From Ruditapes philippinarum (Eukaryota), in assembly GCF_026571515.1 (NCBI RefSeq), contig NW_026857573.1:124001-188000 (forward strand): DNA of 64,000 nt. The letters run 5' to 3'. The notes below the pieces were generated by a model that saw only the letters and a list, made by a program, of their open reading frames with translations, did not search any database and was not told where the DNA came from. The position numbers and the translations under genes were made by a program. Shown here piece after piece: positions 34,555 through 46,893 of this stretch (the first letter of the stretch is position 1; the number at the start of each line of letters is the position of its first letter).

Positions 34555-36073
34555 TCATTTGTAAATTCTGTATTCAAACATTTCCAGGTAGCGTCTTGAT
34601 GGATTGGCAGTCACCTGAAGAACGATGTCTCGTCCAGATGTTGTATTAAAACAGGCCAAGTTTTCTGAAAAATAAATGTCACCATCATGATATGGCCCAC
34701 AAATAGTAATTAATGTGTGTATTTATAGAAGTGGATATTATATTTCGCTTTGTAATATTTATGAAATTATTTAAACAAAATAATATTTAAACGAATATGA
34801 ATAAATGAGCATTAACTATTCATTTTGACACAAAATCTAGTTAAAATGTATTTTGAACTTTGAAATATGATAAATATGATATTTACCTTTGTCAAAGGTT
34901 CCTAGTCGCTGATTTGTAGCTGTGAACGTTATATTGTAGTCTGTATATGGACTAATATTTTTAATACAGATTCTTTTCATCTAAAAGGAAATAATTGTGG
35001 AACTTTTTAAGAAATGTTAGCAAACTTGCAAAGATATACTTTTTATAATTGTTGTTTTAAGTTATAATTCATGTTGATAAGGTTATATTTTTAGATAAGG
35101 AATTAGATTTATTTGTGTAAAACTGTGTAAAACTGAACGTAAATCAAATATAGGTCTATTTAAGTTATAAATATCCTACCTCTGTCACATTTTGAAAATG
35201 CATCATGGTGTGACCTGCAGGAGAATGCCAGCGGAATGTTCCATTCATGCATTCTTCTGGAACATTTACGGTTGTCGTAAAATTGTCAGATATGGGAATT
35301 CTTCTTTAAAAATAAGAAGGTAATTTTGTAACAAAATGACAATATATATATATGTTTTAAAAGAACAAATTGTCTACTTCATGTAATTTATCGCCAGTTG
35401 TTTATAAATTCATTTGTAAATAGTATTTTGTAAATGAAACTAAGTGCTGCAGCATCATGATGATTTTTACAAAATAATATTGTAATCATTGCCAGCATAG
35501 TGACAAATTGTGGTGCCAAACCAATAAGTATTTGGTGGAGAATCTATAAAAAATCATAACGTTTGCTATCTATTCAGATGAATCAGGTCTGCTGAAAGTT
35601 TTTTATCAAGACGTCTGAAAACTGATAATAAAAACATTTAAACATTGCGTAATATAAATAAAAAGAAACATTTAAGGGAAAGTCACCAGTCTCGTCCTTT
35701 CTTTTAATTTGAATTTGTTGCTTATTCTAAGGACAGATAATTCACATTGAAGGTGAACAATACATAATGTCGTTTGCTAATTATAGTCGCTGACTTCCTT
35801 TGTAGTCATTGTAAAAATGAAAGGAAACGATGCCCACGATTTCTGTACATTCTGTCTATGCAGGTAACTGTAACAAATTTTATTAAACATGAATATTTAA
35901 CAACAAAATATCTTAAATAAAAGATGCAGTCCAGTTATCAAAATTAAATAGACGCTCTTAAAGTGTATAACTTACCCGCCGGGATACTCCGGACATACTT
36001 CACATGGCTTTTCACAGAAAAGTCCGAAAACGGAAAACACGCACATCAAGAAATAAATAAAATTGATCAACAT
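34555..36073 (-). CDS. Small secreted meteorin-N-domain-like protein, copy A2 (4 exons, 140 aa, ORF intact)
   Basis: Exons 36073-35976, 35300-35180, 34980-34887 and 34664-34555. Protein: MLINFIYFLMCVFSVFG LFCEKPCEVCPEY..VPEECMNGTFRWHSPAGHTMMHF..ICIK..ACF..IVLQVTAN..MFEYRIYK*. Confidence 0.85.
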
Positions 36074-36254: not shown

Positions 36255-36466
36255 AAATCCATTCATTTACAGCTCGTCTTTAAATGAATGCAGTTATCTG
36301 GTCCCCATTAAAGGGAGAGAACTCGTCCGGTCTTGTTGCTTCAACCACGTGTTGTACGTGACGTCATAATTAAGTCTGATGTCATCGAGACCTTGCGCGT
36401 TTTCAATCCTTTTCCTCGAGGAATTCAAGCAGGAAGGTCGACATTTTGCTTTTTCTTACAAATTAA
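36255..36466 (+). repeat. Ngaro repeat A1 (212 bp)
   Basis: Identical by eye to 42491-42702. Confidence 0.95.
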
Positions 36467-36785
36467 TTTGAAATTGATTTAAGATTTATTTATTGAATAA
36501 GATTTCTTTCTACTTTTAATGGTAGATTAATATTGAATATCTACTAATTTCATAAATTATATGTTGATCTTGTTGTGTAGTGTAAATAACGATAATTATT
36601 GATACTTGATCAGCAGGAATGCTAGATATAAAACTACATGTTACAGTAGGTTTAGTCTGGAGGCTCTCTATCTATTAACGGAGATAAGATATATTCGACA
36701 TTGCATTTTCTTTTAGCCGCTAGATCTATATTGACTGATAGTTAATAATTTACTTATTAGATCTAATTTTTTATTTCTTGAGAAA

Positions 36786-38162
36786 ATGCCTCGGCCTAAG
36801 AGGAACTGTAAATCTACATGGAAGACGCGAGGGCAGACTAGGTCAGCCACAAGATCTAGAGGGAGACGGTCCCATCAGATTGAAGTCTCCATGCAACCCA
36901 TTGTAGAGCAGCCGGCTGTAGTTCAGTCTAATGCAACAACAACAAATTATGCAGCAGTAACTCAGGACCAAGGTCAAATCAATCAGTTCTATCACACTAA
37001 TCAGAACGATTATGTGAATACGTCATCTGTACAGAACCAATGTCATTACTCGTCACATACCCATGTCCCAGGGGTGTTGGGACAACAGTCGCTCTATCAT
37101 TCAAATTCAGTGAATACGTCATCTGTACAGAATCAAGGTCATTACTCGCAGCTGGCTAATTGTGTAGTACCAGCCTCAGTTGTACCAGTAACACATACCA
37201 ATGTCCCAGGGATGTTGGGACAACAGTCGCTTTATCCTTCAAATTCAATGCAAGTGCCATATACACAGCATTGTCAGGGAGCTGTTCCTTCAACGGCCTC
37301 GGTATCGGAAGGATTTGCTTCAACTTCACAAGGCTTGCAGATGTCTCCTGCTGGAGGAATGTTCGAGTCACCTGTGGTTGGGCAGCCCCCGATGGTACAT
37401 GAAACATCAGGTAATGAAAATGTTTTCAATTCGGTAGTAACTGATATGGCTTTGCATGTAAACGCTAGTACAAAAGAAAGAATATTGAGTGGAGAATTTG
37501 TTGATTTAACATGCTTATTAGAAAAAGATTCCTCCGCTCAAAGTAAAATCTTTAAAGTTGTAAATGGCGTACTAGTCTTGTCTGATAGTTCTAGATCTAT
37601 TAAACATACTGTTTTGTCAATTGAACAATGGACTGATGCCTTTTTAATATATATGAGTATTTTGATTGCAAAACACCCCGAATTAGCCATAGAATTGTTG
37701 CATTATTTAAACACAATACGATCTGCGTCAAAACTAAATCCGATTGGCTGGATAAAATATGACAAATTTTTCAGGTATAAAATGTCACAATATCCAAATA
37801 CAAAATGGTCAAATATTGATGCTGAGATATGGTTGGTAACTATGACGAATGTAAGCTCAAATCAATCAAACAAACAAAATCACTGCTATGAGTTCAACGG
37901 TAAAGGGTTTTGTTCAAAACCGGGTTGTCAGTACTTGCATAAATGTAAAAAATGTACCGGGCCGCATTCTGCTTTGCTTTGCAGATCACCTACACCAGGA
38001 TTTGTAAATGCTTATAGATCTAATAATAATCTCAGCCAAAATCATTTCAGACATCCCAGGTTTGAGCACTTCCCACAATTTGAAACTCCTAGAGCACCTT
38101 TGGGACCTAGGCAACACCCCAATAGATACTTTGCGTCTAGAAATGTGGCTCAAAGGTTATAA
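36786..38162 (+). CDS. Ngaro ORF1 gag-like protein (458 aa)
   Basis: Basic N-terminus, Q/S/N-rich internal repeats, KERILSGEFVDLTCLL..IEQWTDAFLIYMSI..W..YD..FR, and C-terminal CYEFN..C..C.Y.H.C..C..H zinc fingers typical of YR-retrotransposon gag. Confidence 0.88.
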   Translation: MPRPKRNCKSTWKTRGQTRSATRSRGRRSHQIEVSMQPIVEQPAVVQSNATTTNYAAVTQDQGQINQFYHTNQNDYVNTSSVQNQCHYSSHTHVPGVLGQQSLYHSNSVNTSSVQNQGHYSQLANCVVPASVVPVTHTNVPGMLGQQSLYPSNSMQVPYTQHCQGAVPSTASVSEGFASTSQGLQMSPAGGMFESPVVGQPPMVHETSGNENVFNSVVTDMALHVNASTKERILSGEFVDLTCLLEKDSSAQSKIFKVVNGVLVLSDSSRSIKHTVLSIEQWTDAFLIYMSILIAKHPELAIELLHYLNTIRSASKLNPIGWIKYDKFFRYKMSQYPNTKWSNIDAEIWLVTMTNVSSNQSNKQNHCYEFNGKGFCSKPGCQYLHKCKKCTGPHSALLCRSPTPGFVNAYRSNNNLSQNHFRHPRFEHFPQFETPRAPLGPRQHPNRYFASRNVAQRL

Positions 38163-39722
38163 TAAGGAGAATGCAAATTTTATATTACATGGATTCAGGG
38201 AGGGGTTTAGGCTGCAATACAGTGGTCCCCACTGCGAATTTACGGCAAAAAAAATCTGCAGTCTGCGATTAGATACCCGGAAATTTTAGCAAAAAAGCTT
38301 GAAAAGGAAGTACAATTAGGACGCTTTTTAGGTGCCTTTACAATTAAACCATTTGCAAACTTACGCATCAATCCAATTGGGCTAGTTCCCAAAAGTACAG
38401 GTGGAATGCGCCTAATAACTCATCTGTCATATCCTTATAATGGAACTAGTGTTAACGATTTTATTGATCGTGAAATAACTATGGTTCAATATTCCCGTTT
38501 TGACAATGTTATAAAAATAATACAGTGTTTAGGCCCTGGTGCACTTATGGGGAAAAGAGATGTTAAATCGGCCTTCAATCTCTGCCCTGTACACCCTGAC
38601 GATTTCGATTTATTAGGTGTCAAATTTGATGGCAAGTATTGGATTCAAAAAATGCTTCCGCAAGGGTGTTCAGTCAGCCCCGCCTATTTTGAAAAATTTT
38701 CAACATTCCTTCACTGGGCGGTTTCTCAATATGCAAACTCGTCAAACTTAGATCATTATTTAGATGATTTTTTCTTTGCCGGAAAAGCCGGCACAGAGGA
38801 TTGCACAAACCTCATGTTGGATTTTGAGTACATCTGTAAAGATATGAATATTCCTATAAATGAAGATAAATCAGAAGGCCCTAATACAATCATCACTTAT
38901 TTAGGCATAGAGATTGATTCTTTAAAGATGGAAATAAGAGTTCCCTTTGACAAAATAAATAAAGCAAAATCATTGCTATTAGATGCCTTGGTCAAACTTA
39001 AAATTAGATTAAGAGAACTGCAATCAATTCTTGGCATTTCAAATTTTTTCACGAAAGCAATACCAGCAGGTCGTACTTTTAACTGTAGATTATACGCTGC
39101 ACAGTGTCAGGCAAAGAGATCTTACCATATATTCGCTTGAATAAAGATCACAAGGAAGATATTAGAACTTGGCTGCAATTTCTTGATCATTTTAATGGTG
39201 TGTCTATATTCAGTGATCAATACTGGTCGTCAAATCATGACCTTGACCTTTATTCAGATGCTGCTGGTAACAGGCATTTAGGCTGTGGTGCTTACATGGA
39301 CGGGGAATGGATAATTTTTGAATGGCCGATGTTTTGGAGTAATGATGTATTTAAAGACATTACTCTTCTTGAACTAGTCCCTATTCTATTGGCCTTTTAC
39401 ACATGGGGATCAAAGCTTAAAGGAAAAAAGATTATCATCAATTGTGACAACATGAGTCTTGTGCAGATTCTTAACAAAAAAATCATCGCGAAATCTGAAA
39501 GTCATGATTCTGCTCCGAAAACTTGTTTTATTATTGCTTTATAACAATATACAAATAAAAGCAATTCACATCGTGTCGAAGAAAAATGATATATGTGACG
39601 CAATAAGTAGATTACAATTCCCTAGACTGCAGAATTGCTTGCCTGTAAATGCTAGCAGAACCCCTCTTTCTATCCCATTTGATTTTCAGCAATTTATCAA
39701 CACGAAATCATTCGACTGGTAA
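38008..39722 (+). CDS. Ngaro reverse transcriptase-RNase H, split into four ORF pieces by frameshifts near 38250, 39110 and 39480
   Basis: GFREGFRL, PIGLVPK..RLITHLSYP, DVKSAF, LPQGCSVSP, HYLDDFF, RNase H SDAAG / LELVPI / CDN / DAISR. Two of the breaks are at poly-A runs. Confidence 0.9.
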
Positions 39723-39724
39723 AC

Positions 39725-40562
39725 ATGTCTTTAAGTGAGAATACAAGCAAATGTTACAAGTCGGGATTAGAATCATTTAGAAAATTTAGAATTTTAATGC
39801 TCTGTCCGAGCGTTTGGCCACCCAGTCTAAATGAAATCGTAGAATATATAGCGTTCATGTCACATGGCGGATATGCATATAAAACGGTAAACTGTCACAT
39901 CGCTGCCATTAGCTATGTAAACAAAATGAATAATTTTCAAGACAATACTAAATTTTTCATAGTAAGAAAAATGTTAGAAGGAATGAACAGATTACAAAGT
40001 CGATCAGACTCTCGCAGGCCAATCACTTTGCACCTTCTTAAGCAAATTATACATAGCTTGGTGTTTATATGCATGTCCGATTATGAAGCATTACTTTTCA
40101 AAACAGCTTTTTTACTCGCATTTTTTTGGGTTAATGCGCGTGAGCGAAACTGCATTTCTCTGCAACGAAATTCAGTCAAATGATTCATTTGTTCAAATAC
40201 ACATAAAATCATCTAAAACAGATCAGATGGGTAAAGGTCAAACTATACGGGTAAATTTCGAGAGTGAAGACGCCGTGTTGCTCAAACATACCGGTACTTT
40301 AGAAAATTATAAAAGACAAAGACCTGCCGTTCAAGGTCAATATCTATGTCATGCAAATGGAAAGCCATTAACCCAATACCAGTTTAAGCATGTTTTACGC
40401 AAATGTCTAGAATATTTGGGACAACCTCTAAACATTTTTAAATCACAATCATTTAGAATGGGTGGAGCCACATACATGTTCAATAAAGGTATGTCTGAAT
40501 CAGCAATTAAGCAGGCTGGACGCTGGAAGTCAAATGTATATCAGTCTTACATAAGAGTATAA
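39725..40562 (+). CDS. Ngaro tyrosine recombinase (one frameshift at the T-run ~40120)
   Basis: AFLLAF(F)GLMRVSE, SKTDQ, SQSFRMGGAT (HxxR appears as QxxR), GRWKS..Y..YIR. Confidence 0.9.
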
Positions 40563-40576
40563 ACCAATCAACTTCA

Positions 40577-41176
40577 TTGTTAATTTTAGGTCCTCCCGAG
40601 GTATGGGTTATAGGGTCTTCGATTATCCGAGATGCCTACTATTATTCCATCGAAAACAAGGGTCACAACCTTGGATTGGATCTCAAAATAGTTTGGGATT
40701 TTAGGTCAGGTATGAAGGTTCAACATCTGGCAAACACCATACAGCACTTAGCACTGAAATATATGAAATACCCTGATATGCTTATCATTCACTGTGGTGG
40801 GAATGATATTGGACAGACACCCTTAAATGAGGCCGAGCTTTTAGCAATACGCACATTGAATGATGTACACCAGTTAGGTATTCAAAATGGGTTTTATATA
40901 AAGATTGTCTGGTCGCAAATTCTTCCACGTATGTTTTACCGTGGTGAACGTAGCCACTTTAAGTTGAACAAGGCACGAAGGCGCTTTAATACAACACTTC
41001 AATCATTTTGTAAAACAATTGGCGGTGCCTATATTCGACATCAAGACATAGTGGAAGCCCAGCCTCTTTTTCGGGATTTGGTTCATTTGTCAGAATTTGG
41101 TAATGAAATATTCACCAATGATTTAAAAGAGGGTATTGTCGCTATTTTGCGACATAACAGAGATTGCTACCCTTAA
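40577..41176 (+). CDS. Ngaro SGNH/GDSL hydrolase (esterase) ORF
   Basis: Blocks VWVIGSSI, SGMK, IHCGGNDIG and DLVHLS. There is no ATG upstream of the catalytic Ser, and the ORF is preceded by a splice-acceptor-like ttaattttag. Confidence 0.85.
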   Translation: MLILGPPEVWVIGSSIIRDAYYYSIENKGHNLGLDLKIVWDFRSGMKVQHLANTIQHLALKYMKYPDMLIIHCGGNDIGQTPLNEAELLAIRTLNDVHQLGIQNGFYIKIVWSQILPRMFYRGERSHFKLNKARRRFNTTLQSFCKTIGGAYIRHQDIVEAQPLFRDLVHLSEFGNEIFTNDLKEGIVAILRHNRDCYP

Positions 41177-42162: not shown

Positions 42163-42492
42163 GGCATTCTAGCGCACTTATCAAGTAACATATTCATGTG
42201 TTTAAAGAAGCATTCGGCATTGTTCTTGATTGGTATTTATATTACAAACCTTTCTTTTGGCATATTGGAAATCGCAATCAAAGTTATATTGAACATATTT
42301 TGTATAATATATATTATTGCATGTGCAATGCGTTTTTGTTACAAGTCAGTCATGGCCAAGTAACTGCCATCCTTTTATAAATAGATAATATTGCTAATTA
42401 TATAATTATTCATTTAAGGTTATATGTTCTGAATAGAATACCATATATAAATATATATTGTGTTAGTTTTTTCTCACAGGGTGAACAGATAA
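42163..42492 (+). repeat. Ngaro repeat B1 (330 bp)
   Basis: Identical by eye to 43186-43515. Confidence 0.95.
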
Positions 42493-42702
42493 ATCCATTC
42501 ATTTACAGCTCGTCTTTAAATGAATGCAGTTATCTGGTCCCCATTAAAGGGAGAGAACTCGTCCGGTCTTGTTGCTTCAACCACGTGTTGTACGTGACGT
42601 CATAATTAAGTCTGATGTCATCGAGACCTTGCGCGTTTTCAATCCTTTTCCTCGAGGAATTCAAGCAGGAAGGTCGACATTTTGCTTTTTCTTACAAATT
42701 AA
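42491..42702 (+). repeat. Ngaro repeat A2
   Basis: Copy of 36255-36466, directly abutting B1. Confidence 0.95.
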
Positions 42703-46634: not shown

Positions 46635-46893
46635 AACTTCGTGAATTCACGTTTTCAACATACGGAGTTCATAAATTCACGATTTCAACTTCGTGCATCA
46701 TGATTAAAACTTCACAAATTCATCTTCGTGAAGTCACGATTTCAACTTTACGAATTCAAAATTGCAACTTCTTGAATTCGCGATTTCGACTTCACGAATT
46801 CAACTCTACAAATTTATTATTTCAGCTTCTTGAATTCACGATTTGACGATTTCAACTTCATGAATTTTACGATTTTATCTTCACGAATTCAAC
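46635..46893. repeat. Degenerate ~22-bp minisatellite (AACTTCGTGAATTCACGATTTC)n
   Basis: Roughly a dozen imperfect units. The consensus contains the palindrome CGTGAATTCACG. Confidence 0.8.

Follow-up and report, generated by a model that had tools for sequence, protein, structure and literature searches.

How does a retrotransposon make enzymes from open reading frames (ORFs) that have no conserved start codon? The locus that raises this question for us lies in a 64,000-nucleotide (nt) stretch of Ruditapes philippinarum DNA, which we call the window (assembly GCF_026571515.1, contig NW_026857573.1, positions 124,001 to 188,000 of the forward strand). All coordinates below are positions within the window, on the plus strand unless we say otherwise. 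Judging from its domains and repeats, the locus from 36255 to about 43513 is a Ngaro element, i.e., a tyrosine recombinase (YR) retrotransposon of the order DIRS. It encodes, in this order, a gag-like ORF, reverse transcriptase and RNase H (RT/RH), the tyrosine recombinase, and an SGNH hydrolase (esterase); an SGNH domain that follows the YR marks the animal subgroup of Ngaro. For the downstream ORFs of YR retrotransposons, which are poor in start codons, the quoted view is frameshifting: the accessible text of PMC13003380 cites Poulter and Butler (2015) for the supposition that the YR of Ngaro is reached in this way. We propose that a phase-1 splice donor within gag, at 37410, is joined to the head of the SGNH frame at 40590, and that it is likely joined to the YR frame at 39690 and the RT frame at 38051 as well, so that each enzyme would be fused to the N-terminal part of Gag (GagN). 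Such splicing onto a Gag leader would explain how enzymes without a conserved start codon get made. Taken as a whole, this scheme seems to us probable. Of its parts, we are nearly certain of the esterase join, quite confident of the YR join, and think the RT join likely.

A reading of the window made from the sequence alone had already predicted these three joins from one donor, and the sites are as it described them. The ATG of gag is at 36786, and the donor CAG/GTAATG (37408-37416; the slash marks the cut) follows 625 nt of coding sequence, or 208 codons plus one nt, which puts it in phase 1. The AG acceptors before 38051, 39690, and 40590 are all in phase 1 too, and the three joins open 78 (RT), 163 (YR), and 194 (SGNH) codons. 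The SGNH frame indeed has no Met ahead of its catalytic Ser. The sequence-only reading left out an ATG in the RT frame, at 38008; that of the YR frame is at 39725, 35 nt after the predicted YR acceptor.

The esterase join occurs at exactly the predicted coordinates in assemblies that resemble RNA. Of 24 sequencing runs that were listed, none of them recorded as holding RNA, we analysed eight: five RNA-like runs, a genome-sized run (X15), and two raw runs (X23 and X24). The five RNA-like runs come from five studies (P1-P5); we guess that they are RNA, and they are contigs, not reads. In all five, contigs of the leader exon (coding part 36786-37410) stop at the donor, and contigs join 37410 to 40590 with GT..AG ends, at depths of 60.6, 28.8, 125.6, 61.7, and 30.2. 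The joint uses the SGNH acceptor at 40577-40589 (ttgttaattttag, before 40590) and skips 3,179 nt (37411-40589), which contain the gag core, RT/RH, and YR. It is absent from X15, even though the element's depth there is about 380-960. The segment thus behaves as a U2-type intron, with its GT-AG ends removed in five of five RNA-like runs and in none of one genomic run. Three of the runs (X3, X5, and X14) leave the flank at 35356-35859 uncovered, whereas X15 covers it, and X5 and X14 also contain unrelated spliced joints, so these three behave as RNA. In each RNA-like run the junction contig is deeper than the contigs of the intron (3-21), which suggests, weakly, that GagN-esterase predominates among the processed RNAs, contig depth being a poor gauge of expression.

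One RNA-like run, X1, also joins the donor at 37410 to a sequence from outside the element. That sequence has no match in the fetched loci, the genome assembly (G000), or the window; perhaps it is a host exon beside a copy in another individual. As for X23 and X24, they are labelled RNA-Seq, but we rejected them as RNA: they have loose ends at GATC, no strand bias, and chimeras for half of their reads, and they look like a proximity-ligation DNA library. No joint at 37410 appears among their 647 and 669 aligned reads, and we left them out of the RNA evidence.

The 1.4-Gb genome contains about a dozen close copies of the window's element and many diverged families, which allowed us to ask whether the splice sites are conserved. 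We collected 140 loci of diverged relatives, anchored on matches to SGNH, YR, or RT (loci without a protein match were omitted), and with the window and one close copy they form 39 groups at 80% DNA identity. The best SGNH acceptor, sought no more than 45 nt from the first conserved Trp, is in phase 1 in 29 of 31 families, as compared with 49 of 120 control windows, and its distance shifts between 5 and 29 nt. Only 7 of the 31 have an in-frame Met upstream of SGNH. On the donor side, the best donor in the N-terminal part of gag is in phase 1 in 22 of 26 families, and across families the start of the leader is nearly always rich in Arg and Lys. We considered a fixed frameshift or read-through into SGNH and excluded it, as the gap from the YR stop to the first conserved SGNH Trp varies from an overlap to 2,100 nt and can be in any frame.

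The SGNH exon itself (40590-41176, 194 codons; PF13472, E 2.3e-5) encodes a predicted SGNH/GDSL hydrolase. The catalytic residues S10, N71, D162, and H165 are invariant among 33 sequences and G40 is nearly so, giving the Ser, Gly, Asn, and Asp-x-x-His of SGNH/GDSL hydrolases in four blocks. A structure model (pLDDT 96) has the alpha/beta/alpha fold and matches SGNH/GDSL folds (159 PDB matches at E of 0.001 or below); a sequence search of PDB returned no matches. So the esterase retains its catalytic residues and is predicted to fold as an SGNH hydrolase. The GagN-SGNH fusion would have about 403 amino acids. A separate case is locus L096 (G000:C11880), where the 671-codon frame that follows a phase-1 acceptor starts with an SGNH-like domain; neither RT nor YR lies close by, and the locus may be a host gene or a captured exon.

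If spliced RNAs are sometimes reverse transcribed, the genome should contain copies that lack precisely one intron. When we compared the 140 loci all against all, some copies did miss exactly one GT-AG segment of a longer sibling. Copies with the Gag leader joined to SGNH occur in four sister families: L086 (donor CCG/GTAGGT), L093 (CAG/GTAGAG), L095 (CTG/GTAAGT), and the group of L088, L110, L111, L117, and L118. L091 and L108 contain a join into YR. In both, the donor CTG/GTGGGT of their parent, L107, has been linked to a site within RNase H, and this acceptor opens the YR frame (in L091, for 419 codons). The L088 group has the same exon end as L091 and L108 but joins it to the SGNH acceptor, and because the exon end is shared, a single donor serves two acceptors, YR and SGNH, in this sister family. 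For RT there is one candidate: L074 fits a join of ACG/GTACAA to the TTTCAG acceptor of its sibling L043. A repeated terminal segment, as is expected of retrotransposed RNA, is present in L088, L091, L093, L095, L111, and L074; the terminal repeat test found none in L086, L108, L110, L117, or L118.

About ten other deletions remove domains (among them L035/L036, L102, L130, L146, and the L113 and L143 groups), and we rejected them as splice products: none has GT-AG ends, and none begins at the donor. That these deletions fail on both counts shows that the test discriminates. Several of them (L113, L114, and L116; L035 and L036; L143, L148, and L150) are amplified non-autonomous subfamilies with internal deletions whose breaks are not GT-AG. 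Also, L077 differs from L063 and L064 by a deletion of 243-248 nt on the 5' side of the gag core that starts at CAG/ATAAGT and ends at an AG; perhaps this is a further intron whose donor has decayed.

For the YR join, one argument comes from a single synonymous codon. The acceptor used in L091 is the CAG that encodes the Gln of the RNase H motif D-x-[IL]-S-R-x-Q. This motif could be read in 24 families, one of which has no Gln. In all 19 families whose YR frame is open back to the motif, the Gln codon is CAG, as against 102 of 333 Gln codons (31%) in the RT/RH cores. In four of four families of one clade, which includes the window's, the codon is CAA (39615-39617 in the window, where the motif is DAISRLQ), the YR frame is closed 14-22 codons upstream, and there is a phase-1 CAG at -35. 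In the window, this is the predicted acceptor at 39664-39689 (ending in gattttcag, before 39690). These four families (numbered 0-3) form one clade in a 27-row RT tree (support 98/89), which contains families of this genome only. By this comparison, the change from CAG to CAA and the gain of a new acceptor downstream are a single but compensated evolutionary event. Splicing predicts that a synonymous CAG/CAA switch should track the opening of the YR frame; frameshifting does not.

Entry into RT seems to differ between clades. The best RT acceptor is in phase 1 in 18 of 25 families versus 31 of 100 controls, and 19 of 28 families have no in-frame Met upstream in the RT frame (nine have one). 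In the window, the predicted acceptor (38036-38050, ending in catttcag, before 38051) encodes Phe-Arg in the gag frame, and a second in-frame AG follows at 38060. Within the window's clade, TTTCAG is in phase in at least one copy of nine of nine families (families 4 and 9 of the nine were assigned by similarity, off the tree), but in the sister clade this holds for 1 of 12. The reverse is true of UUU_CGN in the gag frame followed by an open RT frame: 11 of the sister clade's 12 families have it, as does one of nine in the window's clade. Among 84 control windows, TTTCAG occurs in none and UUU_CGN in one, and seven unassigned families carry neither motif. In the four copies of the window's family, we found neither UUU_CGN nor a Ty-type +1 motif in register. 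Sister-clade loci with UUU_CGN in register include L087, L092, L128, L082, and L127, and in four families it reads TCC TTT CG.

Both motifs encode Phe-Arg in gag, and family 9 retains TTTCAG with Phe-Ser, which implies that it is the letters rather than the residues that are kept. By reasoning, UUC_AGR should give tRNA-Phe no re-pairing in the +1 frame. These patterns suggest that the window's clade likely splices into RT and that the sister clade likely reaches it by a +1 frameshift. We lean, if only slightly, towards a broader statement: that in animal Ngaro elements a single gag donor feeds the esterase, YR, and, in the window's clade, RT, which would make the actual proteins fusions to a Gag leader, and that the Phe-Arg codons at the gag/RT border serve one clade as a +1 frameshift site (UUU_CGN) and, after a switch, the other as a splice acceptor (U UUC_AG). 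The sequence-only reading had rated the RT acceptor as the weakest of the three and perhaps due to chance; TTTCAG is in phase in all nine families of the clade, and one degenerate copy fits it. The check which that reading proposed, whether sites and phases are conserved across Ngaro families, comes out positive in this genome for the donor, SGNH, and the phase-1 YR acceptor, and for the RT acceptor within the window's clade only.

Several observations weigh against our scheme. The joints at 38051 and 39690, which had been predicted along with the esterase joint, are in none of the five RNA-like runs, although rare variants are lost from Logan contigs. The intron forms a single unbranched contig of 3,226 nt in X1 and X3, and yet X1 retained another minor join from the same donor. 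The runs are only guessed to be RNA and are assembled contigs rather than reads, and the junction contigs are short, with 26-30 letters on the shorter side, under the tool's 31-letter rule for bridging. In the assembly G000, none of the 14 and 24 matches to the window's family is an intron-less copy, nor is any of the 13, 13, 44, and 17 matches to four further families of its clade; the shifted YR acceptor is thus unsupported by copies, and the 40 RT-anchored loci include no intron-less copy. The join in L074 has two mismatches and seven equally good cuts, one of which is GT-AG. Families share ancestry, our weight matrices are approximate, and the windows for RT were picked with the data already in view, all of which makes our p-values optimistic. 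The window's family also has its own ATGs for RT and YR. Finally, the window's sequence by itself says little: among the 168 AGs between the donor and the SGNH acceptor, a weight matrix ranks the three acceptors 33rd (RT), 3rd (YR), and 10th (SGNH), and as our matrices are rough approximations, we would say, weakly, that the three are not clearly beyond chance. The case for splicing stands instead on the RNA junctions, the intron-less copies, and the conservation of phase across families.

Could RT and YR be reached by frameshifting? The frames do overlap (+1 from gag to RT and -1 from RH to YR), a shift would account for the joints that are missing from the RNA-like contigs, and in the sister clade the abundance of UUU_CGN relative to controls makes frameshifting into RT likely to be real. 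In the window's family that motif is absent, and it is rare in the rest of its clade. A canonical -1 slippery heptamer (X XXY YYZ) lies in the RH/YR overlap of just 2 of 28 families, the window's not among them. Exact DNA copies of the donor-to-YR join exist, and the CAG/CAA switch follows the opening of the YR frame as splicing predicts. We consider frameshifting into both enzymes unlikely as the explanation for this element. It seems more improbable still that translation of RT and YR begins at ATGs within their frames (38008 and 39725), by re-initiation or on RNAs with internal starts. These ATGs lie in frame and are retained in close copies, but the Met at 39725 is confined to the window's family, most families have no upstream Met in the RT frame, and no contig start or step in depth marks an internal RNA (although contigs cannot show starts).

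A different objection is that the YR and RT joins stem from rare cryptic splicing, reached the genome through accidental retrotransposition, and are not the source of working enzymes. The copies are indeed few (two YR copies in one family and one RT copy), and neither join appears in RNA. We doubt this strongly: that phase 1 is conserved, and that the YR acceptor moved with compensation, implies that the sites have been under selection. We give very little credence to the idea that no splicing takes place today and that the 37410-40590 junction reflects either transcription of a DNA copy lacking the intron or faulty assembly. Other families do have such copies, the contigs with the junction are short, and the sequenced individuals differ from G000; still, the junction is absent from both X15 and G000, five studies give the identical GT-AG cut, and a DNA copy of this kind would itself derive from this splice. 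Of the three GagN fusions that had been predicted to arise by alternative splicing, then, the esterase fusion has its junction in RNA-like assemblies; in the window's family, the use of the YR and RT joins is an inference, presumably at a low level.

Returning to splicing, we picture the expression of the element as follows. Unspliced RNA from A1 to B2 (the terminal repeats described below) would provide full-length Gag and the genome. Splicing from 37410 yields GagN-SGNH at the RNA level and probably GagN-YR and GagN-RT/RH in smaller amounts, so that each enzyme would be translated as a fusion to the basic front end of Gag. The Arg- and Lys-rich leader might bring the enzymes to RNA, to the particle, or to the nucleus. 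The spliced RNAs could also be mobilised in trans, which is likely because they retain both sets of terminal repeats and which would explain the intron-less copies.

Beyond the splice sites, the repeats, RT/RH, YR, and SGNH fit the classification of the element. Comparing repeats within the window, we found split direct repeats in the arrangement A1 ... B1-A2-B2: A1 (36255-36466, 212 nt) is 100% identical to A2 (42491-42702), and B1 (42163-42490) matches B2 (43186 to about 43513). A1 begins the element at its 5' end, and most of the closest copies start at the same base; B2 ends it. The RNA-like contigs also contain the joins from B to A and from A to the sequence downstream of it. The gag-like ORF1 (36786-38162, 458 amino acids) has a basic N-terminus, a linker rich in Q, S, V, and P, a core, and a Cys/His knuckle; the core and knuckle are conserved in all families, and there is no Pfam match at the cut-off. 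Depending on the family, 65 to 220 codons precede the core. The RT/RH frame (38008-39722, +1 relative to gag) matches PF00078 above the cut-off (E 1.9e-12) and, weakly, PF17917 (E 0.0098). The YR frame (39690-40562) matches PF00589 at the cut-off (E 3.1e-6) and, weakly, PF02899 (E 0.014). A Pfam scan of six frames found no DDE integrase, protease, or methyltransferase domains. In the window's copy, four small indels interrupt RT/RH (near 38247, 39128, and 39476) and YR (near 40121), three of them within homopolymer runs. Near-identical copies (L015, L016, and L019), reads, and contigs differ from the window at these sites, and the breaks are copy-specific changes or assembly errors. A 6-nt difference at 40288 also separates the window from close copies and most reads and is a possible assembly error.

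Some other features of the region may be worth recording. The Gag leader has internal tandem duplications at 37009-37271 (D5 and D7). A pyrimidine-rich AG at 36700-36716, 70 nt upstream of the gag ATG, is a possible acceptor for an intron in the 5' untranslated region; no joint is listed there, and a contig break and a step in depth lie nearby in X3 only. On the minus strand, just left of A1 (34664-35976), there is a spliced transcript with three CT..AC joints in X5 and X14 and none in genomic X15, and this region is repeated (inverted repeats I1-I3). Outside the element, at 46644-46865, is a cluster of degenerate short tandem repeats (D3).

If we are correct, then the annotated YR and hydrolase ORFs of Ngaro elements, and some of the RT ORFs, are incomplete, and the real proteins bear a basic Gag N-terminus. 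The correct constructs for biochemistry would follow from this, and the role of the unexplained esterase, whose mRNA appears to be abundant, would become testable. A class of non-autonomous copies would find its explanation in the retrotransposition of spliced RNAs. For the sister clade, a +1 frameshift site that is not yet catalogued would be predicted.

Our literature search, whose coverage did not extend to closed reviews, Repbase notes, or supplements, turned up no account of Ngaro or DIRS elements being spliced naturally. Such splicing goes unreported in the accessible text of PMC6681497, PMC7192593, PMC9210276, PMC8547959, PMC9341512, PMC4157794, PMC3783388, PMC13003380, and PMC9940879. 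The Ngaro-like elements DIRS-53_XT and DIRS-54_XT of Xenopus have the same gene order (gag, RT/RH, YR, SGNH), overlapping frames, and A1...B1-A2-B2 repeats as the element studied here, and the function of their hydrolase is unproven (PMC9210276). The string "splic" occurs zero times in that text, whereas for the present element we show splicing of a Gag leader to SGNH and have support for its splicing to YR and RT.

Splicing is familiar from retroviruses. In the spliced mRNAs of foamy viruses and other retroviruses, the donor lies in the leader and the ORFs have their own start codons. As in foamy virus pol and retroviral env mRNAs, where one 5' donor has competing acceptors, unspliced RNA here would serve gag and spliced RNA the downstream genes, including pol (PMC5294762). 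The differences are that our donor lies inside gag, that its phase is conserved, that the products would be fusions to a Gag leader, and that there is no envelope gene. The SD' RNA of murine leukemia virus (MLV) is similar in two respects: its alternative donor is within gag, and after splicing the RNA undergoes reverse transcription and integration as an independent retroelement, SDARE (PMC10496198). But SD' RNA makes one accessory retroviral product, while in Ngaro splicing is the apparent main route to two or three enzymes and has left fossil copies in several families. In Ty1/Copia elements, too, splicing sets the ratio of proteins, by way of a subgenomic gag RNA (PMC5580714); there it makes Gag alone, and here it removes the Gag core and makes enzymes.

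Two further likenesses concern the products. The ORF1 protein of the non-LTR (long terminal repeat) retrotransposon ZfL2-1 has an SGNH esterase behind an N-terminal arginine-rich part, a layout similar to that of GagN-SGNH; its esterase binds lipids and its arginine-rich part is proposed to bind RNA (PMC3905857). That protein is encoded by one unspliced ORF and has a coiled coil, and kinship with the window's esterase does not show up among the fold matches listed or in the PDB sequence search. The UUU_CGN motif of influenza PA-X and the amalgaviruses (PMC5052127) occurs in register where gag and RT overlap in the sister Ngaro clade, for which frameshifting is predicted from the motif alone; it is absent from the window's family. 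So splicing in retroelements is already known, from foamy virus pol, MLV SD'/SDARE, and Copia gag. What this analysis adds is the precise esterase junction, seen in RNA-like data and absent from a DNA control, together with the compensated shift of the YR acceptor and the likely split between splicing and frameshifting at RT.

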